DNA of 64,000 nucleotides from Candidatus Hydrogenedentota bacterium. Lineage in GTDB: Bacteria > Hydrogenedentota > Hydrogenedentia > Hydrogenedentales > SLHB01. Shown one piece after another: positions 31,521 to 61,119 of the stretch. The first letter of the stretch is position 1; every line of letters begins with the position of its first letter. The position numbers were made by a program, and so were the translations under genes. The DNA lies in assembly GCA_963745075.1 (NCBI GenBank), contig CAVUWV010000024.1:96001-160000 (forward strand), read 5' to 3'. The notes below the pieces were generated by a model. That model saw nothing but the letters and a program-made list of their open reading frames with translations, did no database searches and was not told the origin of the DNA.

Positions 31521-34500
31521 CTGAGTAAGTCACAGAATTTTATCGATGTCGTTCGAGAACGGGCGGTGAGTGATCCGGATCGGGTCGTCATTGGCTTTAT
31601 TGGCGAAAGTGATCCTTCAAGCCCGCTCCTCACCTACCACACCCTGGATTCGCGCGTTCGCGCGATTGCTTCTTATCTGCAATCCGTCAGCAAACCCGGG
31701 GATCGCGCACTGCTGTTCTTTCCTCCCGGCAATGATTTTAGCATCGCGTTTTACGCCTGTCTTTATGCCGGTATCGTCGCGGTGCCCGCCTATCCTCCGC
31801 GACCGGGCCGTACCCTCGGCCGTTTACTGGCCATGTTTTCGGACGCCGAAGCTTCGGTGGTGTTGACCCGCAGTGAACATCTCAACGGCGCTAAGGCCCT
31901 CTTAGCCAATCACCCCGCGTTGGCCGGCCTACACTGGGTGGCGACGGATACGTGTGCGTCCGATCCGGACGCGTGGCGTCATCCCGATACGACGTCGCAA
32001 GACTTAGCCTTTCTCCAATACACCTCGGGCTCCACGTCCCTTCCCAAAGGCGTCATGGTGTCCCATGGCAACTTGTTGCACAATTGCGGATATATCCAGA
32101 GCGCACTCGGCCTGACCCCGGAAGACCACGTCCTCAGTTGGTTGCCCCAATTCCACGATATGGGGCTTTTATCCGGCGTGCTGATACCGCCTTACGTGGG
32201 GTGCCGTGCCTCCTTGATGGCCCCTATGTATTTTCTGCAACGTCCGGCCCGGTGGTTGCAGGCCATGTCCGAACTGAAAGCCACCGTTTCCGGTGGCCCG
32301 AACTTCGCCTACCAACTTTGTGTGGACAAGGTTGTGGAGGACGATTGCAAGACGCTCGATTTGGCATCCTGGCGGGTGGCGTTCAACGGCGCCGAGCCCA
32401 TTCGTCCAGGAACCCTGGATGCGTTCACCGCTAAGTTCCGCTCGTGCGGTTTCCGTCACGAAGTGCACGTGCCCTGTTACGGTCTCGCGGAAGCTACCCT
32501 CGCCGTCACGTTCGCAAAATGTGACGCCGCTCCGGTGGTCCGCGAGTTTACCCCTTCGGAACAGTTGGACTCGGATGCGAGTGCCGCCCCGGAACGCACG
32601 CGTTCATTGGTCGCGTGCGGAGCGCCAGCGGACGATCAAACGGTGCGCATCGTCAATCCCGAAACCCGCCACGAATGCGCCCACCGCGAGGTCGGTGAGA
32701 TTTGGGTCCGCGGCGAAAGTGTGGCGCAGGGATATTGGAACCGTCCGGAAGAAACGGCGGCAACCTTCGACGGTCGACTTGCCGATACCGACGACGGCGC
32801 CTATTTGCGCACGGGAGATTTGGGGATTTTGGCCGACAGTCAGCTCTATGTCGCCGGACGCCTCAAAGATCTCATCATCATTCGCGGGATTAACTACTAT
32901 CCCCAGGATATCGAATTGACGGTCGAGTCATGCCACCCGGTGCTGCGTTCCGGCTGCGGAGCCGCCTTCGCGGTCGAAGATTCAGGTACGGAACGGTTGG
33001 TTGTGGCGCAAGAAGTTTCCCGCGACGATGTCGACGAATTCGATGTTGATGACGTAGCGAGCGCGATTCGATCCGCCGTGGGCGAGCAACATGAGTTGGA
33101 AGTCTACGCGGTCCTGTTGCTGCAACCCGGCTCGATTCCCAAGACTTCCAGCGGCAAAATCCAGCGGCGCGCGTGCCGGAATGCATATTTGGCCGGGAAG
33201 TTGGCTCTCGTCGGTCAATCCACGCGCGAAGAGACAGGAATTGCCGGCGATGCCGTCGTCCCGTCACGGGTTGCGGCCACCGAACAGGATACCGAAAAAG
33301 CCTACGCGCGAATTCGCGATTTTCTCACGCACCGAATCGCCCTGCGACTCAGTATCGAGGTTGGCGCTGTTGATGTGAAGCAGCCCTTCTCAAGTCTAGG
33401 CCTCCATTCCATGGCCGCCGTCGAAATGGCCGCCGATCTCGAGAAGATGATGGGGCACTCGCTGTCGCCGACACTGGCGTACGAGTATCCCTGTATCGAC
33501 GCCCTCTCTCATCACCTCGCCGGATCGTGGGTGCCTTTCACATCCGAATCCGAGAGCCGCAAGCAGGGCGAACCCATCGCCATCGTCGGCATGAGTTGCC
33601 GCTTCCCCGGCGCCAACAGCACCGCCGAATTCTGGTCCCTGTTGCGCGAAGGACGTGATGCGATTCGGGAAATCCCCCAGGAACGGTGGGACTTGGAAGC
33701 GCTCTACGATCCGGATACGGCGACTCCGGGTAAGATGATTACCAAATGGGGCGGGTTTATTGACGGCGTGGATCAATTTGATGCGGCGTTTTTCAACATT
33801 TCACCGCGCGAAGCCGCTAGTATGGATCCGCAGCAGCGGGTATTGCTCCAAGTTGCCTGGGAAGCCCTGGAACACGCGGGAATCCGGCCCGACCGTCTCG
33901 GAGGCTCTGCCACGGGATCGTTCATTGGAATCTCCTCGATCGACTATCTGCAACTCCAGCTCCTTCTGGGCGCCGAAAACGACGCATACGTCGCGACCGG
34001 AAACACCCAGTCGATCGCGTCGAACCGTCTTTCCTATCTACTCGATCTTCACGGACCCAGCGTGTCAGTGGATACGGCATGCTCGTCTGCTTTGGTGGCA
34101 TTGCATCAGGCCTGCCAAAGTCTGCGTGACCGGGAGTGCAGTCTTGCGCTCGCCGGCGGAGTCAGCGTGATCTTGTCACCGCTGGCAACCGTCGCGCTGT
34201 CCCAGGCGCGGATGCTCGCGCCGGACGGACGCTGCAAAGCCTTCGACGCGTCCGCCGACGGTTATGTGCGCAGCGAAGGGTGCGGAATCGTTGTGCTCAA
34301 GCGTCTTGCCGACGCACTGGCCGATGGTGACAACGTGTTGGCCGTCGTTCGGGGTACCGCCGTCAACCACGTCGGGCACAGCAACGGCTTGACGGCGCCC
34401 AGCACCAAAGCCCAACAGGCCGTCATTCGCGCCGCGCTCGACAACGCCGATGTCGCGCCCGCCGAAGTCTCCTTTCTCGAAGCGCACGGTACCGGCACCG

Positions 34501-37500
34501 CTTTGGGCGATCCGATCGAGATCGAATCCATTCAAGCAGTCCTGTCGGAAGGCCGTGATCCGGAAAACCGGTGCGCCATCGCCTCCGCAAAAAGTAACGT
34601 GGGCCACTTGGAACCCGCGGCCGGGATCGTCGGGCTGATCAAGGTCGTCCTCGCGTTGCTGCACGAAGAGATTCCGCTGCATCTTCATCTGAACCAACTG
34701 AACCCACTCATCAAACTCGATGAGTCGCGTTTCGAGATTCCAACGGACCGAAAGCCCTGGTCCCGTGGCGCCCGCCGCCGTCTTGCCGGTGTGAGTGCCT
34801 TCGGATTCGGCGGCGCGAACAGCCACGTGGTACTCGAAGAAGCGCCGCTCACGGTTTCCGTAAAGGCAAAGGATGCGCCCGAGCGGCCACGGCACGTCTT
34901 AACGTTGTCCGCCCGCACCGAAACGGCCTTGCACGCATTGGCCCGTCGCTATTCGGAATTCGTTACAACCGGCGGCGTGTCGGTGCCGGACCTCTGTTAC
35001 GCCGCAAATACCGGCCGGTGCTCCTTTGAACAACGACTGGCCATCGTCACGGAACCACTCGATGGCGAGAATGCTGCACAGTCGCTTCGTGATGTGCTTG
35101 CCACTGTCGCCGAAGGGAAGAAGACTCCGACCGCCTTGCGCGGCACCGTGCGCCCCGGGAACCGTCCAAAGCTTGCGTTCCTGTTCACCGGTCAAGGCGC
35201 GCAGTTCGCCGCCATGGGGCGGCAGTTGTACGAGACCGAACCGGTGTTCCGCGCGACCATCGATCGGTGCGATGCAATTCTCCGCGAGTACCTCGAACAG
35301 CCTTTGTTGTCGGTTCTGTACCCGCCGGAGGGTGCGAATTCCCCGATCAATGAAACGGCCTACACCCAGCCTGCATTGTTCGCGCTGGAGTATGCTCTCG
35401 CCGAACTGTGGCGATCGTGGGGCATCGTCCCCGACTACCTCCTCGGCCATAGCGTCGGCGAATATGCCGCCGCGTGTTTTGCCGGCATGTTCAGTCTCGA
35501 AGACGGCCTCAAACTCATTGCCGAACGCGGACGCCTGATTCAGTCGTTGCCGGCAGGCGGCAAGATGGCTGCCATCTTCACCGACCACGCAACGGTCGAC
35601 GCTGTGGTGAAAAAATACTCCGATTCCATATCCGTGGCCGCCGTGAATGGACCCAACCTCGTCGTCGTGTCCGGCGAAGGCGAGGCACTTGACGCCGTCG
35701 TCGAGCACTTTTCCGAGCAGAACGTGCGCTGCACGCGCATGACGGTTTCCCACGCGTTCCATTCACCCTTGATGGATCCGATTCTCGATGCATTCTTCGA
35801 AGTTGCCAACGGCGTAACCTATCGGCCTTTGCTGATTCCCCTCGTTTCCAACCGCACCGGACAGACGCTCGAAAAAGGCGACACGCTGGACGCCGCCTAC
35901 TGGCGCGACCACATCCGCGACGCGGTACTCTTTGACGGTGGCATGCAGGCACTCGCCGATCACGGCGTTTCCATGTTCCTCGAGATTGGACCCGCAAACA
36001 CGCTTATCGGAATGGGACGCCGTTGTCTCTCCAAGACCGAAGCGACATGGCTTCCGTCTCTCGGAAAAGACCCGGACAATTGGCGGACCCTGCTGACCGC
36101 CGCGGCCACGCTGCACGTCAATGGAATTGAGTTGGATTGGCACGCCTTTGATGCCGAACGGCCCCGTCGGCGCGTCGCAGTGCCGACCTATCCTTTCGAA
36201 TTGAAACGCTTCTGGTTTACCGAGCGGCCCGGCGCGTCTTCCGAGATTGTCCGTGCGCTCGGAGGCCAGGTTGCCGGCGGTATTTCGGACGCCGCTACGC
36301 TCAGCGAAGAAGACCGCGCGAAAGTTTCCAGCTGGTTTTACGGTATCGACTGGGAGACCCTTCCCGAGGTGCCGAAATCCAAGGACACGGGCCGTTGGCT
36401 GATCTTTGCGGAAGACACGCCGTTTTCGAAGGTCCTTCTTGAAGAGTTTGAGGCGCGTGGTCTGAATGTAACCCGCGTCGGCCGCGGTTCGAAGTGCTCC
36501 TGCGATGGTCCAACGTGGACGGTGCGTCCCGATTCGCCCGAAGATATCGACCGCTGTCTTGATGCCGCCTTCAGTTCCAACGGCTCGGGAAAGACCGGCG
36601 TCCTTTACATGGGGGGAGCGCCCTCGTTAGTGGACCAAAACGCTCCCGGTTCGGATGCGTTGGCTGCCTATTCGACTTCCTGCCGTGGCGCCTTCGCGGT
36701 AGCGCAAACCCTGGCTCGGCGCGCCGTATCGAAAACTGCCCCGAAACTCTACGTTGTGACTCGGGGTACGCAGTGCACGGCAGACGACGCAAACGCCCCG
36801 AATATGGCGGATGCCTCCCTCTGGGCATTGGGTCGTTGTATCGCGCTCGAACATCCTGACGTCATGGCCAAGCTCATCGATCTTCCAATTCCGGATGACG
36901 TCCAAGCGGCCACCGTTGCCGACGAACTTCTCGCGGCCGACAACGAAAACATGGTCGCCCTGCGGTCTTCCAACCGCTACGGTGCGCGCGTCACGCCCTT
37001 AACAGACAAAGACGAAAAACCCAAACCTCGTTTCCACTGCACCCCCGACGGCGCGTACCTCATCACCGGCGGATTCGGCGGTCTCGGCGTCAAAGTCGCG
37101 CAGTGGCTCGTTCGAAATGGCGCCCGCAGGCTAATCCTCCTGTCTCGAACCGCATTACCTCCGCGTGCAGAGTGGGCGACGCTCGATGCGTCAAGCCGCC
37201 CTGGAGCGAATGCGGCCGTAGTACGTGACCTCGAAGCGATGGGCGCTGCCGTTCACGTCGCCGCCGTCGACGTCGCGGACGCCGACGCCCTCGATCATTT
37301 CCTCGAAACATACCGTCTTGAACTGTGGCCCCAGATTCGCGGTGTTATCCATGCCGCGGGACTGCTGGACGACCAGTTGATTCATGACCTGGACCCCATA
37401 TCCTTTGAACGGGTCGGTCGTTCCAAAGTTGCCGGTGCCTGGAATCTCCATCGCGCCTTCAGCGACGCGGATCTCGATTTCTTTATATTGTTCTCGTCGG

Positions 37501-39155
37501 CTGCGTCCATGTTCGGATCGGTGGGGCAGGGGAACTACGCCGCCGCAAACGGCTGGATGGACGCCCTGGCGCGCTACCGCCGTGCAAACGGCGTGACGGC
37601 TCTCAGCGTCAACTGGGGACCCTGGGCCGAAGTCGGTATGGCCGCCCAGCCCAACCGTGGCGGACGGCTCGCCCAGCAGGGCATTGCCAGTATCGAGCCC
37701 GATCTCGGGTTGGCCGCCCTTGGCATGCTGCTCGCACGCGAAGATGCGCAGGTCGGCGTCGTCGATGCGGATTGGTCGGCGCTGCAGTCGCTCTTCGACG
37801 CGGGCGACGGCGTACCGTTCCTGTCCAAGGTGGCCGGTGCGACGAAGGCCGCCTTGCCCAGCGACCGGTGCAAGAAGATTCTCGATTCCGAAGGTGACGA
37901 ACGACGGAAGCTCATTGAGGAGCAGCTCTGCGCGTCGATCGGCGAGGTGCTCCATACCGATCCCGCAGCAATTCCCGTGGACCAGAACGTCGTAAATCTG
38001 GGCCTCGACTCGATCATGGTCATGGACTTGATTCGCAACATTGGCCGCGACCTCAAGATTCGGATCCACCCCCGCGAGGTCTTCGAACAGCCGTCGCTGA
38101 ACGGACTCGCCACATACATTGGCACCGAACTCGACATCATGCAGCACAAACGTGCCGGGGAAGCGCCGCCGGAAGAAGGCTTCATCAAGGCCAACATCAA
38201 CAAGGCGCGCGGCAAAATCACCGCGCCCCCCAAGCCCGAAAAGAAAAACCCACCCTGCGTGTTCCTGCTCTCCGCGCCGCGTTCGGGCTCGACCCTGCTC
38301 CGCGTCATGCTGGCTGGGCATTCCGGCCTGTTCAGTCCCCCGGAATTGCACATTCTCCATTTCCATTCCATGCGAGACCGCCGGACTTTCCTCGGTGAAG
38401 GCAATTATCTCGGCGACGGGTTGCAACGGGCCTTCATGGAAGCCCAGGGAATCGATGCCGACGCCGCAGAGAAACGTATCGAGCGGATGTACGAAGAAGA
38501 CACACTCATCCAAGACGTATTTACCTTGTTGCAGGAACAGGTCAACCCCCGGTTGCTCGTGGATAAATCACCGACGTATACCGGCCGTCGCGAGACCCTG
38601 GAGCGCGCCGAGGATCTCTTCGAGAACCCCAAGTACATCTATCTCTATCGCCACCCCTACGCGGTAATCGAGTCGTACGTGAAGAACCGTACCGGGAAGA
38701 TGTTCGATTTCGGACACGCCGATCCCTATCTCCTGGCGGAAGAAGTGTGGGCGTCCCACAACGAGAACACCATCGAGTTCTTGAAAGCCGTGCCGGACGA
38801 CCGCCAGTTCCCGGTGCGCTACGAAGAACTTGTCACCGATCCCGAACGCATCATGCGCGACATGTGCGCGTTTCTCGACCAGCCGTTTGAACCGGCGGTT
38901 CTCGATCCCTACGCGAAAGGCCGCATGACCGACGGCGTGCGCTCGAAGGCCCGCGCGATCGGCGATCCCAACTTCATGAAACACACGTCGATCGATCCGA
39001 CGCTGGCCGACGCGTGGAAACGCGCCAAACTGCCCTATCCACTGAAGGAATGGGCGCAGCGTATCGCCGACGTACTCGCGTACGAACTCCCGAACGAGCA
39101 CCTCGCGGAAGCGCATGCCGGTTCCACGGAGGAAATGGAGGAAGAGCGCCTATGA
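31521..39155 (+). CDS. Type I PKS, Ols/CurM-like: FAAL-ACP-KS-AT(malonyl)-KR(B-type)-ACP-sulfotransferase, no TE
   Basis: FLQYTSGST/WLP.FHDMGL/PCYGLAE (FAAL); GLHS; DTACSS, HGTGT, KSNVGH (KS); GHSVG + HAFHS (AT); GGFGGLG, LLDD, YAAAN (KR); GLDS; SAPRSGSTLLRVMLAGH, DKSPTY, YRHPYAVIES, GDPNF (ST). Confidence 0.93.
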   Translation: MSKSQNFIDVVRERAVSDPDRVVIGFIGESDPSSPLLTYHTLDSRVRAIASYLQSVSKPGDRALLFFPPGNDFSIAFYACLYAGIVAVPAYPPRPGRTLGRLLAMFSDAEASVVLTRSEHLNGAKALLANHPALAGLHWVATDTCASDPDAWRHPDTTSQDLAFLQYTSGSTSLPKGVMVSHGNLLHNCGYIQSALGLTPEDHVLSWLPQFHDMGLLSGVLIPPYVGCRASLMAPMYFLQRPARWLQAMSELKATVSGGPNFAYQLCVDKVVEDDCKTLDLASWRVAFNGAEPIRPGTLDAFTAKFRSCGFRHEVHVPCYGLAEATLAVTFAKCDAAPVVREFTPSEQLDSDASAAPERTRSLVACGAPADDQTVRIVNPETRHECAHREVGEIWVRGESVAQGYWNRPEETAATFDGRLADTDDGAYLRTGDLGILADSQLYVAGRLKDLIIIRGINYYPQDIELTVESCHPVLRSGCGAAFAVEDSGTERLVVAQEVSRDDVDEFDVDDVASAIRSAVGEQHELEVYAVLLLQPGSIPKTSSGKIQRRACRNAYLAGKLALVGQSTREETGIAGDAVVPSRVAATEQDTEKAYARIRDFLTHRIALRLSIEVGAVDVKQPFSSLGLHSMAAVEMAADLEKMMGHSLSPTLAYEYPCIDALSHHLAGSWVPFTSESESRKQGEPIAIVGMSCRFPGANSTAEFWSLLREGRDAIREIPQERWDLEALYDPDTATPGKMITKWGGFIDGVDQFDAAFFNISPREAASMDPQQRVLLQVAWEALEHAGIRPDRLGGSATGSFIGISSIDYLQLQLLLGAENDAYVATGNTQSIASNRLSYLLDLHGPSVSVDTACSSALVALHQACQSLRDRECSLALAGGVSVILSPLATVALSQARMLAPDGRCKAFDASADGYVRSEGCGIVVLKRLADALADGDNVLAVVRGTAVNHVGHSNGLTAPSTKAQQAVIRAALDNADVAPAEVSFLEAHGTGTALGDPIEIESIQAVLSEGRDPENRCAIASAKSNVGHLEPAAGIVGLIKVVLALLHEEIPLHLHLNQLNPLIKLDESRFEIPTDRKPWSRGARRRLAGVSAFGFGGANSHVVLEEAPLTVSVKAKDAPERPRHVLTLSARTETALHALARRYSEFVTTGGVSVPDLCYAANTGRCSFEQRLAIVTEPLDGENAAQSLRDVLATVAEGKKTPTALRGTVRPGNRPKLAFLFTGQGAQFAAMGRQLYETEPVFRATIDRCDAILREYLEQPLLSVLYPPEGANSPINETAYTQPALFALEYALAELWRSWGIVPDYLLGHSVGEYAAACFAGMFSLEDGLKLIAERGRLIQSLPAGGKMAAIFTDHATVDAVVKKYSDSISVAAVNGPNLVVVSGEGEALDAVVEHFSEQNVRCTRMTVSHAFHSPLMDPILDAFFEVANGVTYRPLLIPLVSNRTGQTLEKGDTLDAAYWRDHIRDAVLFDGGMQALADHGVSMFLEIGPANTLIGMGRRCLSKTEATWLPSLGKDPDNWRTLLTAAATLHVNGIELDWHAFDAERPRRRVAVPTYPFELKRFWFTERPGASSEIVRALGGQVAGGISDAATLSEEDRAKVSSWFYGIDWETLPEVPKSKDTGRWLIFAEDTPFSKVLLEEFEARGLNVTRVGRGSKCSCDGPTWTVRPDSPEDIDRCLDAAFSSNGSGKTGVLYMGGAPSLVDQNAPGSDALAAYSTSCRGAFAVAQTLARRAVSKTAPKLYVVTRGTQCTADDANAPNMADASLWALGRCIALEHPDVMAKLIDLPIPDDVQAATVADELLAADNENMVALRSSNRYGARVTPLTDKDEKPKPRFHCTPDGAYLITGGFGGLGVKVAQWLVRNGARRLILLSRTALPPRAEWATLDASSRPGANAAVVRDLEAMGAAVHVAAVDVADADALDHFLETYRLELWPQIRGVIHAAGLLDDQLIHDLDPISFERVGRSKVAGAWNLHRAFSDADLDFFILFSSAASMFGSVGQGNYAAANGWMDALARYRRANGVTALSVNWGPWAEVGMAAQPNRGGRLAQQGIASIEPDLGLAALGMLLAREDAQVGVVDADWSALQSLFDAGDGVPFLSKVAGATKAALPSDRCKKILDSEGDERRKLIEEQLCASIGEVLHTDPAAIPVDQNVVNLGLDSIMVMDLIRNIGRDLKIRIHPREVFEQPSLNGLATYIGTELDIMQHKRAGEAPPEEGFIKANINKARGKITAPPKPEKKNPPCVFLLSAPRSGSTLLRVMLAGHSGLFSPPELHILHFHSMRDRRTFLGEGNYLGDGLQRAFMEAQGIDADAAEKRIERMYEEDTLIQDVFTLLQEQVNPRLLVDKSPTYTGRRETLERAEDLFENPKYIYLYRHPYAVIESYVKNRTGKMFDFGHADPYLLAEEVWASHNENTIEFLKAVPDDRQFPVRYEELVTDPERIMRDMCAFLDQPFEPAVLDPYAKGRMTDGVRSKARAIGDPNFMKHTSIDPTLADAWKRAKLPYPLKEWAQRIADVLAYELPNEHLAEAHAGSTEEMEEERL

Positions 39156-42100
39156 CACCCGGGGGCCTCCTTGCAAAAATCCTTGCGAGGGGGGTGCACG
39201 TATGGGCCGAAGACATTGAGCTTTGCCTCCGTGCACCGAAGGGCGCCCTGTCTTCCGAATTGCGCGATGCCCTGAAGGCCAACAAGTCTGAGGTCATCGC
39301 GCTGTTGGGCCAACGCCGGAAACACGCTCCCGCATCCTATGCCCAACGCCGTCTCTGGTTCTTCGATCAACTCGAACCAAACCGGTCGACCTACAACATG
39401 CACTTGACCTATCGCCTGACCGGTGCCTTGGACGTGGTCGCGCTTGAGCAAAGTCTCAGTGCCATCGTCCGCCGTCATGAAACCCTTCGAACGTCGTTTA
39501 CCAGTTTCGAAGACCAGCCCGTCCAGGTTATTGCCGAAGATGTTCCGTTTCAGGTGAGCCATTGCGAACTCGAAAATGGCGAAAGCGATGAGGACGCACG
39601 GCTTCGCCGCCAAGTAGACAGCTACACGCGCACCCCTTTCACGCTATCCAACGCCCCATTGATGCGGGCCTATCTGATTCGCTTGCGACCCGACATGCAC
39701 GTACTTACCATCGTCCTGCATCACATCATCGCGGATGGCTGGAGCATGCGCGTCGTACTACGTGAACTGGCGGCGCACTATGCGGCCTTTGCCCGGGGAG
39801 GCCAACCGGCCATCGATCCGTTGCCGCTTCAATACGCGGATTACGCCCGCACCCAGCGGAATTGGCTTGAGAACGACCTCGATAAACGCCTCGCGTACTG
39901 GCGCGAACAACTCGCCGGTCCGCCGCCACCATTGATGCTACCCACGGATCGGTCCCGTCCCGCATTTCAAACCTTCCATGGCGGACGCGAACTGCTGGAA
40001 CTGGACCCCGAACTCGTTGCGTCATTGCGGAAACTGAGTACCGACGAAGGTGCCACCCTATTCATGACACTGTTGGCGGCCTTCGAGGTGTTGTTGTACC
40101 GCTATTCCGGCCAGGAAGACTTTGTCGTCGGTTCGCCGGTTGCGGGCCGCTCCCACCCCGGCACCGAAAACATGATTGGTTTCTTCGTCAATACGGTCGG
40201 GCTGCGTGCGAACTTCGATGGGAATCCCGAGTTTCGGGAATACCTTCGTCGCACGCGCGAAACGGTGCTTCACGCTTTCGAGCATGAGGATTTGCCCTTT
40301 GAGAAACTCGTCGAAGAACTGCACCCGGAACGTGACCTGAGCCGCACGCCGCTTTTCCAGGTCCTTTTCAATATGATTAACATGGGCGGCGACTCGCTTG
40401 AAATGGGGGACGTTACGGTCGATCGCCTGTACCGCCGCGAGCCGGAGTCCAAGTTCGACCTGACCATGTACGTCCGTCCGAAAGCAGGCAAGATTCGGCT
40501 CATGCTCGTGTACAACCGGGATCTTTTCGACAAAGAAACCATCGTGGGCATGTTGCGCGATCTTCGCTCGCTTCTCGAAGCGATCGCGGCCAACGCCGAT
40601 GCGCCCGTCGCCTCGTTACCGATGGCCCAGCGCGAACCGGATACAACGGTCGCGTTGCCGGAATCCGCGTCTGTGGTCGATTTCGATCGACCCATCCACC
40701 ACGTATTCGAAGATAGAGTGTCCGAAACCCCGGACAATATCGCCATTGCCACCCGCGAGCACGAGTGGACCTATTTCGACCTGAATCAAAGAGCGGATAC
40801 CATCGCGGCCGGATTGATGGAATCGACAGGCGCGAAGAACGCACGCATTGCTCTCGTATTCAATCACGGTGCGCCGATGATTGCCGCCGTTTTGGGAGCG
40901 TTGAAAGCGGGAAAGACCTACGTTCCCATGGACGCCGGATATCCGCAAGCCCGCTTGCGCTACATGATCGACGACGCGCAGGTTCAGGCCATCCTCACGA
41001 CGTCAGATCTGCTCGAATCAGCACGCGAGCTTGCAGACGGCCGCTGTCCCGTCTGTTCAATTGACGAATTCCAACCGGTAGAACGATTCGCGAGCGTGGA
41101 CACGGATTCAGAGACGCCAGCGTATATTCTCTACACCTCGGGGTCCACGGGTAATCCCAAAGGCGTCGTGCAGAACCATCGAAATCTGCAACACTTCATC
41201 GACGCCTACGTGCAGCGCCTTGGTCTGACGCCCAACGACCGGCTTAGTCTGCTATCGTCATTCGGGTTCGACGCGGCAGTCATGGACATCTTTTCGGCCT
41301 TGCTTACAGGGGCGTCCCTTGTCCCAATCAATCTCAAAACCGAAACGTTGCCAGACGCTATGGAATGGATGGCGACGCGACGCGTCACCGTCTACCACAG
41401 CACGCCAACCGTATTCCGCGCGTTCATAAGTGCGGTTTCGAGCGGGGAGAACAACAATGACATTCGAACCGTCGTTCTTGGTGGTGAAGTAGTCACTCGC
41501 CGAGACGTTACGCGGTTCCGGAAGCACTTCCCGTCCGATTGCAGGCTCGTAAATCTGTACGGCAGCGCAGAGGCCTCGTTCACGTGTTGCCACGTCGTAT
41601 CAGATGGGGGAGAGAGCGTCGGAGCGGTCGTTCCCATCGGTCATGCTGTGGACCGTACCGAGATTCGGCTGTTGAATGCATACGGCGGCGAAGAGCCGGT
41701 CTTCGGTGAAATCGTCGTATGCAGCCGTCATACGGCGTTAGGATATTGGACCCGCGACGCGGAGACTGCCGCAGTCTTTGGAACCGACCCGGAGCGTGAG
41801 GAAATCCGTATTTACCGTACCGGTGATCTGGGTCGCCGCCGCGCTGACGGCGTCATCGAGTACCTCGGACGTCGGGATTTCCAAATCAAGGTCCGCGGGT
41901 ACCGTGTTGAGCCCGGCGAGATCGAGACGCTCTTGAATAGATACCCCGGTGTTACCGAATCCGTCGTAGTGGCGAAGGAAGCCGACGGTGGCGACACGAA
42001 ACTCGTAGGGTATGTCGTCATTGGTGCCGGCCAGTCCCTTGATTCGCCCGCGCTGCGCGCGCATCTGAGCGGAAGACTGCCGGACTACATGATTCCGACG

Positions 42101-45100
42101 ACGTTGGTGACGCTCGATGCGTTGCCGCGAACAACGTCTCGGAAAAATCGATCGCCGCGCCTTGCCGATGCCCGAGTCTTTTGGAGAATCCGTCGGCGAA
42201 TATGTCGCGCCACGGACCCTCACGGAAGAACTTGTTGCGGGCATCTGGGAACAGGTGCTGACGCGGGGTCGCATCGGCATGCTGGATCGGTTTTTCGACA
42301 TCGGCGGTCATTCGCTGCTCGCCACGCAGGTCGTATCGCGCATTCGGGATACCTTCGATGTGAACCTGCCCCTGCGCGCACTCTTCGAGCATCCGACCGT
42401 AGCGGGACTTGCCGCCCGAATCGACGCCCTTCGCCAAGAGGCAACCGACTCCCATATACCGCCCATCACGCAGATTTCTCGGGACAAGCCGCTGCCGCTC
42501 TCGTTTTCCAGCAGCGGCTCTGGGTCCTGGATCAGTTGGGCGCACGCGACGGCGCGTATACCATGTCGACTGCCATGCGTCTGGCCGGCGAACTGAACGT
42601 CGATGCACTGGAAAAGGCATTCTCCCGGCTGATCGAGCGTCATGAAAGTCTCCGCACGGTCTTCGTCGTTGACCGCGACGAACCGCATCAGAAAATACTG
42701 CCGGCTCGCCCGTTTCCCTCGCTCCCATCACAATCGACGATCGTGCACCCGATGAGCGCAAAGCCGATGCTATGCGTCGTGCGTCGGAAGAGGCGGCCGA
42801 ACCCTTCGACTTGACGACCGGTCCGCTCATTCGGGTTCGGTTGTATCGACTTGGTCCACTGCGACCACGTCTTGTCGGTCATGATTCATCACATCGTTTC
42901 CGATGCGCTGGTCCATGGGTGTTCTCGTGCGCGAGATTCAGCAGTCGTACGAAGCGTTTGCGCGGGAATTGGAACCGGATCTACCCGCTCCTGAACGTTC
43001 AATACCCCGATTTCGCGAAGTGGCAACGGTCCTGGTTACAGGGCGAGGCCTTGGAATCTCAGTTGGCGTATTGGCGTCAGCATTTGGACCGCGCCCCGGC
43101 CACGCTCGATCTTCCCACGGACCGGCCGCGTCCTCCCGTCCGCAGGTTTGTCGGTGATCGCGTCACGTCGCAACTGCCGTCAGAAATCGCCGAACAACTC
43201 CGAGCCCTCGGCCGCGAAGAAGGCGCCACCCTGTTCATGGTGCTGTTTGCCGCCTTCAACGTGCTGCTCCATCGCTATTCGGGCCAGGATGACGTGGTGG
43301 TCGGCACCCCCATCGCCAATCGGAGTCGCCGGGAACTGGAGCCCCTGATCGGGTTCTTTGTTAACACGCTGGCCATTCGCACCAATCTGTCGGGTAATCC
43401 CACCTTCCGGACGTTGCTCCAACGCGTGCGCGAAGCGGCCCTCGGCGCGTACGCCCATCAGGATCTGCCCTTTGAACGTTTGGTCGAGGAATTGCATCCC
43501 GAGCGCGATTTGAGCCGCTCGCCGATCTTCCAGGCCATGTTCGTCCTGCAGAACGCGCCTAAGTCGCACCATCATCTGCCGGGCCTCACCCTGACGCGTA
43601 TCCCATTGGATACCCATCGCGCCCGTTTTGACGTGGTCATGGCGGTCAATGATACTGCCGACGCGCTGAACGTGGCCCTCGAATTCAATACGGATCTTTT
43701 CGACGCGTCCACCATGGAGCGGCTCCTGGGACATTTCGCTACGATGCTCCAGGCTATCGCACAAGACGGAAACGAAGCGGTCGGCACCGTGCCCATCTTG
43801 ACCGAGTCCGAGCGAGAAGCGCTTCTGCATACGTGGAATCAGACCCAGGCGCCGTACCCAGTCGACCGCTGCGTACACGAACTGCTCCAGGCGCAAGCCT
43901 CCCGTCGTCCCGACGCCATCGCATTGGACGACGGCGACCGGCGTATTACCTACCGCGAACTCAATGAACGCGCCAATCGTGTTGCGCACCGTCTGTTGGG
44001 CCTCGGCGTGAATATCGAATCACGCGTAGCCGTTTGCGCGTATAAGCGTATGGACGCCGTAATTGGTTCGCTGGCGATCATGAAGGCCGGTGCTGCGTAC
44101 ATTCCATTGGACCCGGCCCACCCGTTGGAACGACTCCAGTTCATGCTTGACGATTCCGGTGCGAACGTACTGCTGGCGGATCGCAGGTTCCATGAGGCTT
44201 TCGCATCCGACAGTGTCACGCGGGTCAGTGTCGACGACTGTATTTGCAACCCCGAACTGGACGCAGGAGACCCCGTCACCGCCGTGACTCCCGAGAATCT
44301 CGCTTACGCGATCTACACATCGGGATCCACCGGATGGCCCAAGGCCGTCCTTATCGAGCATCGCTCTGTGCTGAATCTGATCCAGTGGCACCAGCGCGTC
44401 TTCTCGGTTACGGATCGCGACCGGACAAGCCATTTGGCTGGGCCGGCATTCGATGCGTCCGTCTGGGAATTGTGGCCTCATCTAACGGCAGGTGCGACCG
44501 TCTGCATTCCCCCCGACGAAATCCGGATATCGGCGGAACAATTGCGCGACTGGTTCGTCGCCAATCAAATTACGATAGCCTTCGTGCCGACCCCGTTGGC
44601 CGAGATGATGGTCGCGTTGCCATGGCCGAAGGAATGCGTGCTGCGCTCCATGCAAACCGGCGGTGAAGCGCTGAGTGTGTTTCCCCCGCAGTCTTTGCCC
44701 TTTGAACTCGTCAACAATTACGGCCCCACGGAAAACACGGTCATAACGAGTTCCGGCGTCGTCGCTGAACCCCGCCACGAACATGATTTGCCCGCGCTCG
44801 GTCGCCCGATAGACAACGTAGAAATCTACGTGCTGGACTGCCATCGTCAGCCCGTTCCGGTCGGCGTGCCTGGCGAACTGCACGTCGGCGGTTCCGGAAT
44901 CGCGCGTGCCTATTTGAATCGCCCCGAGTTGACTGCCGAGAAATTCATCCCGCACCCGTTCAGCGATTCGGCTGATGCGCGATTGTACCGGACCGGTGAC
45001 ATGGTTCGGTATCGGCCGGATGGTTCACTAGAGTTTCTTGGTCGAAATGACGATCAGGTCAAACTGCGCGGGTACCGGATCGAATTGGGAGAAATCCAGC

Positions 45101-48100
45101 GTGCGGTCTATGACCATCCGAACGTAGCGACCGCCGCGGTCCTGTTCCGTCCAAGTTGTTCCGGCGATGACCGAATCGTGGCATACATAGTTTGGAAGCA
45201 CGGATATGAAGTTGACCTCGATAACCTGCGTTCCATCCTGGCGTCACGCCTCCCCGCATACATGGTGCCGGCCGCGTTCGTGCAAATGGACGTCCTTCCT
45301 CTGACGCGAAACGGTAAAATCAACGTCTCTGCACTACCACCGCCGGAGGAATTCACACGCGCCATCGATGCCGATGACCATCCCCAAGGCCCGACCGAGG
45401 AAGCCATTGCCGCCATTTGGTGTGCCGTACTGGGTATCAATCGCATCGGCCGCACCCAGCGCTTCTTCGACTCGGGGGGGCACTCGCTCAAAGCGACCCA
45501 GGTCATGTCCCGCATGCGCGACGCATTTGGGGTTGAACTGCCGTTGCGCACCCTGTTCGAAGTCCAAACCGTCGAGGGGCTGGCCGCACGCGTCGAATCG
45601 GAGATGGACGACTCAGGGCAAGCTGCGGATACGATTGTCACCTACACGGGAACCGACGATCCGCCCCTTTCATTTTCCCAGCAACGACTCTGGTTCCTGG
45701 ATCGGCTGGGCGCGCGCGACGGCGTGTACACCATTTCCACTGCGTTGCGTCTGCGTGGCGACCTGAACATCGAAGCATTGGAGCGCGCTCTCAACCACGT
45801 CGTGCGCCGCCACGACGTCCTGCGCACGTATTTCGGCGGAGACGAAAACCATCCCGTTCAAAAGATTGACGACGATTTTCAAATCGCGCTCGCGCCTCTC
45901 GACCTCTCCGATACGCTCGAGCCGCACCGAACCAACGAGGTGTCTCGTATCGTCCAGCAGCTTTCGTTGGAACCGTTTGATCTGCGGTCGGGCCCACTCG
46001 TCCGAGTCGCGCTACTTCAACTTGGCGACAAGGAACACGTGCTCAACGTCTCCATGCACCACGCCATTTCCGACGGCTGGTCCATGGGAGTCTTTGCCCG
46101 CGAATTGACGGCATTCTACAACGCCGAAATCGGGGACGAATACGCGGAGTTGCCCGGTCTGCCCATCCAATATGCGGACTTTTCCGCTTGGCAGCGTGAC
46201 AAACTCCGTGGGCAAGCCCTCAAAGTGCAGATGGAGTACTGGACGGAGCATCTCCGCGACGCTCCGGCAGTCCTCGAACTGCCCACCGACCACCCGCGAC
46301 CGGCCGTACAAACGTTTAATGGCGGTCGCGAATCCTTTCGTATCGAACGGGCAAGTTGGGACCGCGTCGAAGCGATGTGCAGCAGGGAGGGGGTAACGCC
46401 GTTCATGGCCCTCTGCGCGGCGTTCGATGTTCTCATCTACCGGTATACCGGTCAGGAAGACTTCGTCATCGGCACACCGATTGCCAACCGTAACCGTGCC
46501 GAGATTGAAAACCTGATTGGGTTCTTCGCCAATACCCTGGCACTCCGGTTTCATGTGGACGGTCAGGCATCCTTCCGGCAACTCCTGAACCAGGTGCGCG
46601 ACGTGGCCCTCGGTGCCTTTTCCCACCAGGACGTCCCCTTCGAAAAACTCGTGGAAGAACTGGCGCCGGAACGAAGCCTTTCGCGAAGCCCGCTGTTCCA
46701 GGTTATGTTTGCCCTCCAGAATGTAGACGCACAGTTGCCAAAACTCCGAGGTCTCGACGTTGCGCGTGTCGAGCGCCCCGGACGCCGTTCCCGGTTCGAT
46801 TTGACGGTTACCGTATCGGCCGGTCCCGAGGGGCTATCGGTCAACGCGGAGTACAATGCAGACCTCTTCGATGCGGATACCATTCATCGCATGTTGAATC
46901 ATTACGCCGTAGTCATCTCCGAAGTCGCACGCACGACGGATGCGCCCGTGGCCACCATTCCCCTGCTTACCGAAGCCGAACGCCGAACGCTGCTCTACGA
47001 CTGGAACGACACCGCGGTTCCCGTTCCCCTCGAGAAATGCGTTCACCAGCGTGTTGAAATACAGGCGTCGCGTCGGCCCGGTGTGGCTGCGCTAATTGAT
47101 AGCAATGGCCGGCTCACGTACGGAGAACTCAACCGGCGGGCCAACCGTCTTGCCCATCGCCTCGTGGAGCTTCGCGTTCACCCCAGGACCCGGGTCGCCG
47201 TATGCACGAGTCGGCGAATGGACACGGTCGTCGCGGAACTCGCCGTGCTGAAGGTCGGCGCCGCCTACGTGCCGTTGGATCCCTCGTATCCCGTCGAACG
47301 GTTGCGGTACATGGTCGAAGATTCCAGCGCAGTAGCGCTCATCACGGATCGTATTCTGGAACCGTCATTCCCACCCACTGAGGCGTTGCACGTCTGTATA
47401 GAGGATTGTTTTGACTCCGGCCACCTGCCGGATGCAAATCCCGATATAGCGATGACCGCATCCGATCCCGCGTACGCGATCTACACGTCCGGGTCTACCG
47501 GCCGCCCCAAGGGCGTTCTCATCGAACATCGCGGATTGTCGAACCTGGTCTATTGGCATCAACGGGCCTTCCACGTGACCAGCGCCGACCGGGCTACGCA
47601 TGTCGCCGGCCCCGCGTTCGATGCGTCCGTTTGGGAACTCTGGCCCTATCTCAGTGCCGGCGCCACCGTGTATATCGCCGACGAGATGACGCGGGTTTCG
47701 GCGTCCCACCTGCGACTGTGGATTCTCGAGCATTCCATTACGATCTCATTCTTGCCCACGCCCTTGGCCGAGCAAGTCATCGGGATGGATTGGCCGGCCT
47801 CCTGCCCGCTGCGCGCCCTGTTGACCGGCGGCGATGCCTTGCACAAGCGCCCGCCGCCGTCCCTACCCTTTAGAGTGGTCAACAATTACGGTCCCACCGA
47901 AAATACCGTCGTCGCCACCTCTGGGCTCGTGGAGACGACGCACAATACCACGGGAACCCCAGCCTTGGGTCGGCCCATCGACAATACGGAAATCCTCGTG
48001 CTCGACCGCAACCTTCAGTTGGTCCCGGTGGGGGTCCCCGGCGAACTGCATGTGGGTGGGTTCGGACTGGCCCGCGGATACCTGAACCGGCCGGACTTGA

Positions 48101-49755
48101 CCGCCGAGCGGTTTATTTCGCATCCCTTCCGTGGCAATGGCTGCCGCCTTTACAAGACGGGCGATATCGCGCGCTATCGGTCCGATGGGTCCCTCGAATT
48201 CCTTGGACGGGCCGATCACCAGGTCAAGATTCGCGGGTACCGCGTCGAACTCGGCGAAATCGAATCGGTGCTGTGCCGCCAACCCGGAATTGAAGAAGCC
48301 GTCGTGCTTCCCCGCGCCAACGGTCCCAGCGGGCCTGCCCTTGCCGCGTTCGTGGTTCCTGCCTCGGGACAAGAAATCGACACGGAATTCTTACGGGACG
48401 CGCTCAACGCGGAACTCCCCAGTTACATGATTCCGACCAGTGTGACGGAGACCGAAGCGATTCCACTTTCTGCCCACGGGAAGGTTGACCGGGATGCGCT
48501 GCTGAAACTCGAGGCGCGAACTTCTGACGGCGTCGCGCGGCCGGACGAAGCACCGTCGACGGCCACGCAACAGGCGATAGCCGCAATTTGGTGTGACCTA
48601 CTCGAACGGGAGCGCGTCGGAATTCATGAAAACTTCCTCGATAGCGGCGGCCATTCCCTGCTCGCCGTCGAGTTGCTTTCCCGCATAAACGCCGCGTTTC
48701 ACATCGAGTTGCCATTGCGTACCGTTTTCGAAGAACCGACCATCATGGGGTTGGCGCGCCGGATCGATCTCCTGAATCAACTTCCCGTGGCGACATCGAC
48801 TACCAACGACATACTGGTGCCATTGCGGGCTACCGGGTCGCGCCCGCCCATATTTCTGATTGCGCCCGCCGGCGGAACGGTATTCGCCTATTACGCCCTT
48901 GCCCACCATCTTGGACCGGATCAGCCCGTGTACGCTCTCCAGGATCCCGCATACGAGGGCAATCGTCTGCCGTGCGACACCATCGAGGGGATGGCGCGCC
49001 TCTACATCGAGGCGATGCGTGCCATACAACCCAAGGGGCCTTACTTGATCGGGGGATGGTCATTCGGCGGAACCGTCGCCTTTGAAATGGCGCACCAACT
49101 ATCCGATGAGGTCGGTTTATTGTTCCTCATCGAGACGATTACCGGCGTTCGCGCTCCGGGCCGGACCCAAAAGACGCCGGTGGAGCGGTTGAAGCTCATG
49201 TATCGAAACTTAGGCGCTCGCGCTTCGTTGGCCCTTTCCGGCCTGGCCACGACGTGGGAAGGGGTCCGCTACGCGGTGGTGGCCACGCGTTTTGGCGGCT
49301 GGCTGCGCCGAATCGTGCGGGGCATCCGCAACTCGACGGCCGAACGGAGTTTCGCGCGGTCCTACGAACGCGCGCTCAACGCGTCCGCCCCGGAAATCAA
49401 AGGCGCCGGCACGCTGCTCGTACAACAGTCCGTGGCCCGGCATTGGATTCGCATCGCCATGGCCAACGCCCGAGCGTTTCGCCGCTACACCCCCACGCCG
49501 TTCCCGGGAAAACTGACGCTCTTTCTCGCGAAACGGCGCTTGACGGCGCGACCGGGTTCCGACCCCGCCCGTGGCTGGTCGCCCTTCGCCGAAGGCGGAG
49601 TGGACGTGCGCCTTCTGCCCGGCGATCACTTCTCGATTCTCAGAAATCCCAACGTCGTGAGATGCGCGCAAATCCTTCGCGACCGCGCGGACCAAGCGCA
49701 AACCCAAACGAAACGCCAGGCCGACCGGGAAACGACCCCGACGCTGGCATCCTGA
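39152..49755 (+). CDS. Three-module NRPS: TubC_N docking-(C-A-PCP)x3-TE; about six single-base indels between 42138 and 42990
   Basis: HHIIADG, HHIVSD(G) (out of frame in the ORF track), HHAISDG; three YTSGSTG.PK; three GGHSL; TE GWSFG and GDHF. Confidence 0.9.
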
Positions 49756-50762: not shown

Positions 50763-50974
50763 TGCCGCGGGCTCCTCGATAGTTTGCGCTGGGTGACGAT
50801 TTTTACACATACCTTTTCAGCTCCGGGCAGGATGATACATCAATTCCCGCAGAACAAGCAATATTTTATTGTATTTAAGGTTTATTTTTTGAATATTCAC
50901 TTGACAAAACGATGTGCGTTTCCTCCGAAAAATGACGCGATTGCACACGAAAAAAGCAGATTTTGTTTTTCTAC

Positions 50975-61027: not shown

Positions 61028-61119
61028 AGCCTGATTTGGAATGGTCCGCTACACATTGTGGCGTTCCCGATCCAGTCGAATTCGTTTGTCTACACACGTT
61101 TCCGTGAGTGCGCCGAACC

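Follow-up and report, generated by a model that had tools for sequence, protein, structure and literature searches.

What does a sulfotransferase (ST) of the CurM/Ols type do in an assembly line that lacks the thioesterase (TE) found after it in those systems? In Ols and CurM, the TE that follows the ST carries out a decarboxylative elimination, leaving a terminal alkene. To our knowledge these STs have been recognised only as companions of such a decarboxylating TE, and the sole role described for them is an 'activating' one, with loss of the sulfate. We examined a 64,000-nt stretch of a Candidatus Hydrogenedentota contig (CAVUWV010000024.1, positions 96,001 to 160,000; hereafter the window, with positions counted from its first letter) in which an ST of this type, under strong selection in a lineage without such a TE, is wired to an NRPS through a candidate docking pair. 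The nearest named proteins belong to Hydrogenedentota, which overturned a Planctomycetota origin first suspected from the neighbouring genes. This conserved but unstudied design of PKS and NRPS probably makes a sulfated lipopeptide.

A PKS that ends in a CurM/Ols-type sulfotransferase

The PKS gene encodes one 2529-aa protein on the + strand (ORF 31566-39155, GTG start), whose Pfam domain order is FAAL-ACP-KS-AT-KR-ACP-ST. DH, ER and thioesterase domains have no Pfam match anywhere in the 2529 aa, so the order proposed in a sequence-only reading of this DNA is borne out; FkbH-type domains have no Pfam match in either the PKS or the NRPS. The ST motifs which that reading quoted are all found in the translation. 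It had placed the locus at 31521 to 49755: the end coordinate is exact, and the start does lie inside the open frame, but 45 nt before the earliest start codon (31566). The features of the PKS gene are listed here.

31566..39155, + strand: PKS gene, 2529 aa, frame intact (ORF and Pfam)
31629..33209, + strand: FAAL, an AMP-binding domain plus DIP2-like C-terminal subdomain, aa 22-548 (Pfam)
33312..33515, + strand: ACP1, the loading carrier, with its Ser in GLHSM at 33399-33413; limits approximate (Pfam and motif)
33570..34691, + strand: KS, aa 669-1042, DTACSS at 34071 (Pfam and motif)
35178..36131, + strand: AT, aa 1205-1522, GHSVGE and HAFH (Pfam and motif)
37050..37631, + strand: KR, aa 1829-2022, LLDD motif (Pfam and motif)
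37920..38120, + strand: ACP2, aa 2119-2185, with its Ser in GLDSI at 38001 (Pfam and motif)
38253..39125, + strand: CurM/Ols-type ST, aa 2230-2520, PRSGST, PPELH, DKSPTY and GDPNF (Pfam Sulfotransfer_3, structure match and motifs)
39126..39152, + strand: C-terminal tail ending EEERL, a candidate docking peptide; stop codon at 39153-39155 (tail alignment)

By motif rules we take the HAFH of the AT to indicate malonyl-CoA specificity, and the LLDD of the KR to indicate a B-type domain giving a D-3-hydroxy product. The ORF terminates 9 residues past the ST alignment.

Among solved structures the ST matches those of CurM (4gbm, E 3.4e-100) and Ols (4gox, E 3.3e-86). In the CurM ST we take R39, E60, H62 and K133 to be the PAPS-binding/catalytic positions, a numbering and assignment of roles that reportedly comes from McCarthy et al. 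in 2012. Placed on the window ST through the structure-match alignment, all four are present there and in 14/14 members of the TE-less clade described below, and they are kept in 102, 102, 100 and 102, respectively, of 103 PKS-type ST rows. Only three substitutions specific to the TE-less STs were found, each conservative. The ST is also under strong purifying selection. Relative to the same-genus ortholog, no other domains of the PKS are as well conserved as ST and ACP2, which have 90% aa identity and dN/dS of 0.067 for the ST and 0.028 for ACP2 against 0.122 for the whole PKS, ratios that are rough at a dS of about 1 or more. An APS kinase gene is encoded in the genome, making a supply of PAPS possible.

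The ST phylogeny that the sequence-only reading had suggested as a check resolved the TE-less STs as a clade of their own (n = 14, all in proteins stopping just past the ST), with a FastTree support of 99 and an SH-aLRT of 100 in a quick IQ-TREE run. This clade stands apart from the ST of the same genome's own ST-TE paralog, and its depth equals that of the ST-TE clades. The idea that the TE had been replaced by peptide extension thus holds in part: a TE-less KR-ACP-ST wired to an NRPS is a conserved arrangement, but the STs sit in a separate deep clade, and the TE was not recently lost from the genome's own ST-TE gene. The direction of change, whether loss or gain of a TE, is not readable from the ST tree. 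On that tree the ST-then-C arrangement takes at least four changes and the ST-then-stop arrangement likewise at least four; in the analysed set, the ST is fused to a C domain in 11 rows of PKS type and 17 of NRPS type.

The junction between PKS and NRPS

The PKS stop (TGA, 39153-39155) overlaps the NRPS start (ATG, 39152-39154) as ATGA, confirming the overlap with a three-module NRPS described earlier. The N-terminal domain of the NRPS is TubC_N (PF18563, 51.9 bits against a Pfam cut-off of 26), and a TubC_N-like domain could be aligned in eight orthologs, with 17 invariant columns. Hydrogenedentota genomes with readable downstream DNA number eight (the window, G001-G005, G040 and G116), and in every one of them the next gene on the same strand opens with a TubC_N-like domain and a C domain. 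The PKS tails of these eight all end in EERL (E42, E43, R44 and L45 are invariant), giving (E/V)EERL overall; across the 14 TE-less clade members the tail reads EEERL in 11, and EEDRI, QDERV and EEERI in one each.

A chimeric assembly at this junction had been raised as a concern by the sequence-only reading. The PKS-NRPS layout is not such a chimera: beyond the wiring found in all eight genomes, a 508-nt contig from an unrelated soil run spans 38813-39320 without a gap.

We propose that the NRPS is recruited through its TubC-type domain, which would bind the conserved acidic (E/V)EERL tail of the PKS. The arrangement resembles the beta-hairpin docking of TubB/TubC, with TubC_N on the NRPS and a short conserved acidic peptide on the upstream partner. 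It differs in that the upstream partner here ends in an ST rather than a carrier, with ACP2 lying ~340 residues from the putative docking tail. A candidate EEERL/TubC_N docking pair placed after a non-carrier domain is of interest for engineering.

The NRPS, its substrates and its frame changes

The NRPS gene is adjacent to the PKS gene and co-directional with it, and its Pfam order is a TubC-type docking domain followed by C-A-T-C-A-T-C-A-T-TE. Together the two genes supply FAAL-ACP loading, one PKS module, C-A-T modules and a terminal TE. The NRPS reads here as two ORFs, 39014-42814 and 42772-49755, with these features.

39152..39313, + strand: NRPS start (ATG) and TubC_N-type docking domain (Pfam and ortholog alignment)
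39317..40630, + strand: C1, HHIIADG at 39719 (Pfam and motif)
40706..42139, + strand: A1, code as extracted DAMHVGLFTK (Pfam and motif-anchored code)
42140..42995, + strand: six 1-bp frame changes (~42140, 42505, 42703, 42860, 42907 and 42990) over the A10 motif, T1 and the N-terminal half of C2 (frame analysis)
43885..45352, + strand: A2, code DAWFQGNVIK, Leu-like; limits approximate (Pfam and code)
45403..45594, + strand: T2 carrier (Pfam and motif)
45661..46995, + strand: C3, HHAISDG at 46057 (Pfam and motif)
47053..48483, + strand: A3, code DAWFLGNVVK, Leu; limits approximate (Pfam and code)
48544..48741, + strand: T3 carrier, GGHSL at 48646; limits approximate (Pfam and motif)
48847..49755, + strand: terminal NRPS-type TE including the stop codon, GWSFGG and GDH (Pfam, PDB match and motifs)

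The A-domain codes, extracted by motif anchoring, match the peptide X-(Leu-like)-Leu read earlier. For A1, the code DAMHVGLFTK fits no code that we recall and the PDB matches are generic. Residues 2 and 3 are predicted from their codes to be aliphatic, so the hydroxyl made by the KR is the only assured sulfate acceptor. It is conceivable that the ST instead acts on an acceptor other than this 3-hydroxyl, such as the residue-1 side chain or some different metabolite, or that it is a silent remnant; A1 offers no substrate prediction, and in G040 the single-module relative carries a Tyr-like code (9/10 positions agreeing with a Tyr code). We regard this as very improbable, given that the ST directly follows KR-ACP2 as it does in CurM and Ols, sharing conserved positions with both, that it is under strong purifying selection, and that residues 2 and 3 would carry no hydroxyl.

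An objection to a functional pathway comes from the NRPS frame. The six single-base changes lie between ~42140 and ~42990 (0.9 kb), spanning T1 and the first half of C2, and the remaining 17 kb of the 18-kb gene pair are open. Intact NRPS forms occur in G003 (3527 aa), in G005 (an open frame of 3553 aa) and, with a single module, in G040 (1434 aa), and the same-genus ortholog has its NRPS pathway intact. The additional base at 42140 is missing from a near-identical soil contig, whose two other differences are synonymous once the frame is restored. Four public read runs, with shares of just 0.06-0.16, gave useful cover at the first of the six indel sites only; no contig from public runs crosses 42508-42841, and a partial, more distant one lies at 42985-43088. 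Because the near-identical contig lacks the first indel and the same-genus ortholog is intact, the six frame changes are most likely assembly or sequence errors.

That the NRPS of the source strain is instead a decaying pseudogene, the cluster yielding nothing or a PKS shunt product, seems to us rather unlikely, although there is evidence on its side. Six changes fall within ~0.9 kb, and when 19 other genes are set against their orthologs in G003 none has a frameshift, so indels are infrequent in the assembly. A DNA repeat behind the indel cluster was also sought, but 41800-43400 matches only itself in the genome, leaving no genomic repeat to account for mis-assembly. Neutral decay, however, would scatter breaks across the 18 kb rather than gather all six in 0.9 kb, and the soil contig, with its missing base and synonymous differences, also weighs against decay. 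Furthermore, recN (61108-62786) is frameshift-split as well, so that the assembly does carry sporadic indels, and the genome is 89.7% complete despite consisting of only 36 contigs. With its NRPS frame broken six times, and only one of the six breaks shown to be absent from the near-identical contig, the source strain itself may not make the product.

Fate of the sulfate

With no TE after the ST, decarboxylative elimination to a terminal alkene has no catalyst here, and we looked for one elsewhere at the locus. The terminal TE of the NRPS was considered as a displaced CurM-type TE and rejected: its best PDB matches are NRPS TEs, and the CurM TE is not matched. Aligned along its entire length, it shares 31% identity with the TE of the ST-TE paralog in this genome, a TE which itself has no CurM TE match at E <= 0.001. 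A neighbouring alpha/beta hydrolase (49824-50810, - strand) was likewise rejected as a CurM-like TE acting in trans; it is a generic Ser hydrolase with the nucleophile motif GHSFGG, its best PDB matches are generic esterases and haloalkane dehalogenases, and the CurM TE lies outside the best 60 of its 203 PDB matches.

What computation shows is the architecture, how far it is conserved and an intact ST; we infer sulfation by the ST, docking of the two proteins and a product that keeps its sulfate. In the pathway that the domains suggest, the FAAL would put a fatty acid on ACP1, KS and AT would extend it by one malonyl unit, and the B-type KR would give a 3-hydroxyacyl-ACP2, onto whose 3-hydroxyl the CurM-type ST would move sulfate from PAPS. 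No TE comes next; the acidic (E/V)EERL tail would dock to the TubC-type domain of the NRPS, and C1 would join the 3-sulfooxyacyl chain to residue 1 (X). Module 2 would then add a Leu-like residue and module 3 Leu, and the NRPS-type TE would free a linear 3-O-sulfo fatty acyl tripeptide. We give a probability of about 0.5 to this reading, a two-gene FAAL-primed PKS-NRPS line for the anionic lipopeptide 3-O-sulfo fatty acyl-X-(Leu-like)-Leu. Retention of the sulfate would make this a new class of anionic lipopeptide, or of N-acyl amino acid surfactant, from a phylum that has hardly been studied.

Against retention, we know of no natural 3-sulfooxyacyl peptide, and a beta-sulfate is readily expelled when it lies beside a thioester or amide. 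Nor does C1 carry additional basic residues that hint at binding of a sulfated donor: the columns unique to it amount to RK in the linker and a Gly in place of Asn. Sequence does not decide whether the sulfate is kept or lost. The sulfate might be expelled on line or after release, giving a 2-enoyl or 3-enoyl acyl peptide, with the ST as a DH surrogate, or allowing ring closure by an intramolecular nucleophile. Every biochemically studied member of the CurM/Ols ST family is, as far as we know, an activator. The Ols ST is so described in PMC11730487. Expulsion would also suit an ST nearly indistinguishable from the ST-TE enzymes at conserved positions (with the three conservative changes noted above), a PKS module without a DH, and a wiring that apparently arose repeatedly on the ST tree. 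Even so, we hold expulsion to be the less probable outcome. None of the domains after the ST is known to catalyse elimination, and the only TE is NRPS-type, three modules away and without a CurM TE match. C1 has a canonical HHxxxDG and clusters with the elongation domains C2 and C3 of its own cluster rather than with the fused ST-C domains or a special class. An ordinary DH, finally, would make an enoyl chain more cheaply than PAPS. Expulsion, if it occurs, would be a new route to unsaturation or rings on assembly lines.

A broader form of the same idea, which we put forward still more tentatively, is that TE-less CurM-type STs serve assembly lines in general as an 'activate and expel' device, with a 3-O-sulfate put on only to be displaced on the NRPS. 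Displacement may proceed by DH-free elimination to an enoyl-peptide, or by attack of the new amide N or another nucleophile to form a small ring. If true, this would extend sulfate-driven chemistry past alkene off-loading. The small size of the system, which has two genes and in the relative from G040 comprises just one PKS module and one NRPS module, makes the role of a TE-less 'activating' ST testable.

In the open-access papers searched we found no characterised TE-less CurM-type ST cluster of this layout, and passages of PMC11837247, PMC10308959 and PMC5061366 yielded no characterised TE-less example. The Ols of Picosynechococcus/Synechococcus PCC 7002 has the identical order FAAL-ACP-KS-AT-KR-ACP-ST, and the terminal module of CurM (curacin A) is KS-AT-KR-ACP-ST, its ST catalytic residues being kept in the window. 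Unlike both, the window ORF has no TE after the ST, ends in a candidate docking tail that would feed an NRPS, and has its ST in a separate clade.

For a retained sulfate, OciA (cyanopeptolin/oscillapeptin) and the AerB variants are NRPS lines with a built-in ST. DysB of dysinosin offers a further precedent, with a cis ST in line at the start of the peptide line, a starter that ends up sulfated and a sulfate that is kept, according to PMC6520454. These three lines sulfate FkbH-loaded glyceric acid; the PKS and NRPS here have no FkbH, and sulfate would instead go to a 3-hydroxy fatty acyl chain made by the KR. Mid-line CurM-type STs of uncultured bacteria (KR-ACP-ST-C and PCP-ST-C, in metagenome proteins) share the feature of condensation in place of a TE. 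In contrast to these, the window line is split just after the ST and would be rejoined by the candidate docking pair of EEERL tail and TubC_N, its C1 groups with its own C2 and C3, and STs of its kind form their own clade.

A sulfotransferase-terminated PKS overlapping an NRPS

The cluster reads as three long co-directional ORFs, listed here with their neighbors.

Genes of the cluster and its surroundings (window positions)
29018-30772 (+): 584-aa ORF directly 5' of the PKS gene
31566-39155 (+): ORF 1, PKS, 2529 aa
39014-42814 (+): ORF 2, first part of the NRPS, 1266 aa
42772-49755 (+): ORF 3, second part of the NRPS, 2327 aa
49824-50810 (-): alpha/beta hydrolase, convergent with the NRPS end
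61108-62786 (+): recN, in two overlapping frames of 432 aa and 204 aa

Pfam gives ORF 1 the order AMP-binding with a DIP2-like C-terminal part (together a FAAL), PP-binding, KS, AT, KR, PP-binding and Sulfotransfer_3, with no Pfam match to a dehydratase, enoylreductase or thioesterase in its 2529 aa. Joined, ORFs 2 and 3 give a TubC_N docking domain, C, A, (T), (C), A, T, C, A, T, TE; the true NRPS start is the ATG at 39152, in an ATGA overlap with the PKS stop. The sequence-only reading had proposed just this architecture, FAAL-ACP-KS-AT-KR-ACP-ST lacking DH, ER and TE and overlapping a three-module NRPS with a TE, and the Pfam and ORF results agree; every ST motif it quoted is found in the PKS translation, and its coordinates hold overall, except that its start, 31521, lies 45 nt 5' of the first start codon. 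The AT has the motif HAFH and the KR the motif LLDD, which by motif rules we take to specify malonyl extension and a D-3-hydroxy product, respectively.

The 584-aa ORF has no match in Pfam or NCBIfam; it occupies the same place in G003 (a genome of the same genus) at 77% identity, and has no homolog beside the cluster of the more distant Hydrogenedentota genome G040. The hydrolase (nucleophile motif GHSFGG) also keeps its place in G003, at 73% identity, and shows no sign of belonging to the pathway.

Conservation of the PKS-NRPS junction

Among the matches listed, the proteins nearest to this line are from Candidatus Hydrogenedentota. ST-domain searches were positive in 13 of 41 relatives (E <= 1e-20) and in 25 of 135 genomes across the phylum (E <= 1e-60), and revealed two types of paralog. 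Type 1 (53-87% identity to the window ST), whose protein ends right after the ST, occurs in each of the genus's six genomes, the window's own included, and in G116 and G040; type 2 (~50% identity) is more widespread. Eight loci have DNA to read downstream of a type 1 gene (window, G001, G002, G003, G004, G005, G040 and G116), and in 8/8 the next gene lies on the same strand and encodes at its N-terminus a TubC_N-like domain followed by a C domain. In G003 the NRPS is intact, a single frame of 3527 aa that encodes three modules and a TE; G005 has an open frame of 3553 aa, and the NRPS of G040 is 1434 aa long, with one module and a TE; in G116 the NRPS has at least three modules before the frame leaves the contig end, and in G001, G002 and G004 the contig ends within the NRPS.

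The PKS tail is EERL at all eight loci (E42, E43, R44 and L45 invariant), and the docking domains of the eight orthologs share 17 invariant alignment columns. Within the wider clade of 14 TE-less STs the ending is EEERL in 11, the others being EEDRI, QDERV and EEERI. An unrelated soil metagenome contig of 508 nt spans 38813-39320 with 20 mismatches and 0 gaps, and the junction is therefore not the chimeric assembly that the sequence-only reading had wanted checked.

The PKS ortholog of G005 (L041 11296-12998, -) changes frame once between its ACP2 and ST domains, in a draft genome. G040 (L018 2144-14196, +) has a minimal system, a TE-less PKS plus one dock-C-A-T-TE module with a Tyr-like code; it would be expected to make an N-acyl aromatic amino acid, perhaps sulfated, and with only two proteins it is convenient for testing.

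The sulfotransferase and its lineage

The last 334 PKS residues match, among all PDB sequences, the STs of curacin CurM (4gbm, E 3.4e-100) and olefin synthase Ols (4gox, E 3.3e-86), the next best being tyrosylprotein sulfotransferases at ~1e-6; the proposed CurM/Ols type is thus confirmed. With CurM numbering transferred through the PDB-search alignment, the residues we take to be essential, R39 (in PRSGST), E60 and H62 (PPELH) and K133 (DKSP), are kept in the window ST and in 14/14 members of the TE-less clade, which only three positions (E/D, F/Y, L/M), all conservative, set apart from ST-TE enzymes. Comparison with the G003 ortholog shows the strongest conservation within the PKS at ST and ACP2 (90% amino acid identity each), with dN/dS of 0.067 and 0.028 against 0.122 for the whole PKS, rough values as dS is ~1 or higher. 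An APS kinase gene in the genome provides a route to PAPS. Judged by these sequence features the ST is very probably active, and we conclude that its acceptor would be the hydroxyl that the KR forms on the chain held by ACP2, as happens in CurM and Ols; action on some other acceptor seems highly improbable.

A database search with the ACP-ST region yielded 1189 proteins (1390-4426 aa) at E <= 1e-30. Our set took 120 listed proteins of these plus the window genome's own ST-TE paralog, and domain contexts called by BLAST gave 140 ST rows; a tail of 250-400 aa after the ST was scored as TE, with or without an explicit TE match.

Context of the 140 ST rows
PKS-type ST then TE: 71
PKS-type ST then stop: 19
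PKS-type ST fused to C: 11
NRPS-embedded ST then C: 17
NRPS-embedded ST then TE: 7
NRPS-embedded ST then second ST: 6
other or unclear: 9

In a FastTree tree of all 140 rows, the window ST belongs to a 14-row clade (support 99) that consists entirely of ST-then-stop rows. This clade joins three other groups in an unresolved fork, compatible with either loss or gain of the TE: 13 Hydrogenedentes-type ST-TE rows, the own paralog among them; seven rows in which ST and C are fused; and 69 ST-TE rows, mostly cyanobacterial, where the phylogeny that the sequence-only reading had called for places CurM. NRPS-embedded STs stand apart, in a group of 37 rows. A second tree, built by IQ-TREE in quick mode from 49 rows selected out of the 140, gave SH-aLRT values of 100 for the TE-less clade and 99 for the Hydrogenedentes ST-TE clade. 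Such a separate, well-supported clade argues that the TE-less STs form an old lineage of their own; a recent rewiring of the own ST-TE gene is ruled out by the separate clades. The suggestion that peptide extension had replaced the TE is thus upheld insofar as an NRPS stands where the TE would follow, but not as a recent swap from that gene.

The C1 domains that come after a split ST fall together in the C-domain tree (7 rows, support 90). Their group is placed with the C2 and C3 of the clusters themselves, away from C domains fused to STs of other lines; the ST-to-C wiring therefore arose more than once. Many NRPSs with two CurM-type STs occur in metagenome bins labelled Thermoanaerobaculia/Acidobacteriota (P0016-P0038, P0047, P0077), some in tandem ST-ST and some beside an NRPS-type TE.

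The own ST-TE paralog, a type 2 gene on another contig (L015 8780-17487, -, contig C31), encodes KS-AT-KR-ACP-ST-TE in 2278 aa, the Ols domain order, the FAAL being encoded by a gene of its own. The TE of this paralog belongs to the PF00975/NRPS kind, and a PDB search with it gave no CurM TE match at E <= 0.001, so olefin production by the 13-row Hydrogenedentota ST-TE clade is not self-evident. In G116 a single 1833-aa frame (L043 554-6052, +, contig C253) reads ACP-ST-C-A-T-TE, its TE having 47% identity to that of the paralog, an arrangement that looks like an ST-TE line with a single NRPS module inserted in the middle; this genome holds the split, docked version (L042) as well. The L042 NRPS has ~510 residues between A and T of module 3 (frame residues ~3070-3580), room for a candidate embedded tailoring domain.

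NRPS integrity, specificity and the fate of the sulfate

Three-frame reading and comparison with G003 locate six single-base frame changes (~42140, 42505, 42703, 42860, 42907 and 42990), which affect the A10 motif, T1 and the N-terminal half of C2; the rest of both genes (~17 kb) is open. Six breaks within 5% of the gene pair are unlike neutral decay, and we regard local assembly errors as the probable cause, the alternative being real inactivation of the NRPS in the window strain. A near-identical 262-nt soil contig, its cover useful at one of the six sites, does not have the extra base at 42140, and its two other differences are synonymous once the frame is restored. The recN halves match TIGR00634 profile positions 1-435 and 430-562, with one frameshift near 62380, which suggests sporadic indels in the assembly; the genome is 89.7% complete though in only 36 contigs. 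No frameshifts were found in 19 other genes compared with their G003 orthologs, and no second copy of the broken stretch elsewhere in the genome.

A-domain codes were read by anchoring on motifs A4, A5 and A10, at the specificity positions reportedly set out by Stachelhaus et al. 1999.

A-domain codes
Window module 1: DAMHVGLFTK; same in G003 and G005; unusual A5 motif NLYGSAE; no substrate prediction; PDB matches generic
Window module 2: DAWFQGNVIK; Leu-like
Window module 3: DAWFLGNVVK; Leu
G003 and G005 module 2: DAWTIAGVCK; Phe-like, 8/10
G040 single module: DASTLAAVCK; Tyr-like, 9/10

Module 2 shares 8/10 positions with what we take to be the Leu code and module 3 is identical to it, in line with the peptide X-(Leu-like)-Leu expected from the sequence alone. 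Modules 1 and 3 keep their codes across G003, G005 and the window, whereas module 2 differs within the genus, Phe-like in G003 and G005 (L016, L041) and Leu-like in the window (43885-45352). Identity to the same-genus ortholog is only ~57% over the NRPS, against 87% for the ST domain. The terminal TE has the motifs GWSFGG and GDH and its best PDB matches are NRPS TEs; aligned along its entire length, it shows 31% identity to the TE of the own ST-TE paralog, and it does not match the CurM TE in the PDB at E <= 0.01.

Computation establishes the domain layout, how widely it is conserved and that the ST is intact; in the pathway we propose, a fatty acid would be adenylated, loaded, extended by C2 and reduced to 3-hydroxyacyl-ACP2; the ST would sulfate the 3-hydroxyl with PAPS as donor; the candidate docking tail EEERL would bind the NRPS, where C1 would join the chain to residue 1, followed by two Leu-type residues; and the terminal TE would free the product. 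The line would work like the Ols and CurM front end, but is no member of the olefin-forming ACP-ST-TE module: a check for the TE that defines this module found none. We favor retention of the sulfate, with a probability of about 0.5, which would make the product an anionic 3-O-sulfo lipotripeptide (in G040, an N-acyl amino acid bearing a sulfate), because where the product of a peptide line with an in-line ST is known, the sulfate is kept, as by DysB according to PMC6520454, and because an eliminating partner is absent here. That absence likewise weighs against the sulfate serving as a leaving group, the role it has in Ols and CurM, which we consider rather unlikely. Part of the probability goes to none of these readings.

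No characterized example of such a line was found in the open-access papers searched, a set that covers few of the subscription journals. What appears new is the split-and-dock form with its conserved tail, the ST clade of its own, the coexistence with an ST-TE paralog in one genome, and the spread within Hydrogenedentota.
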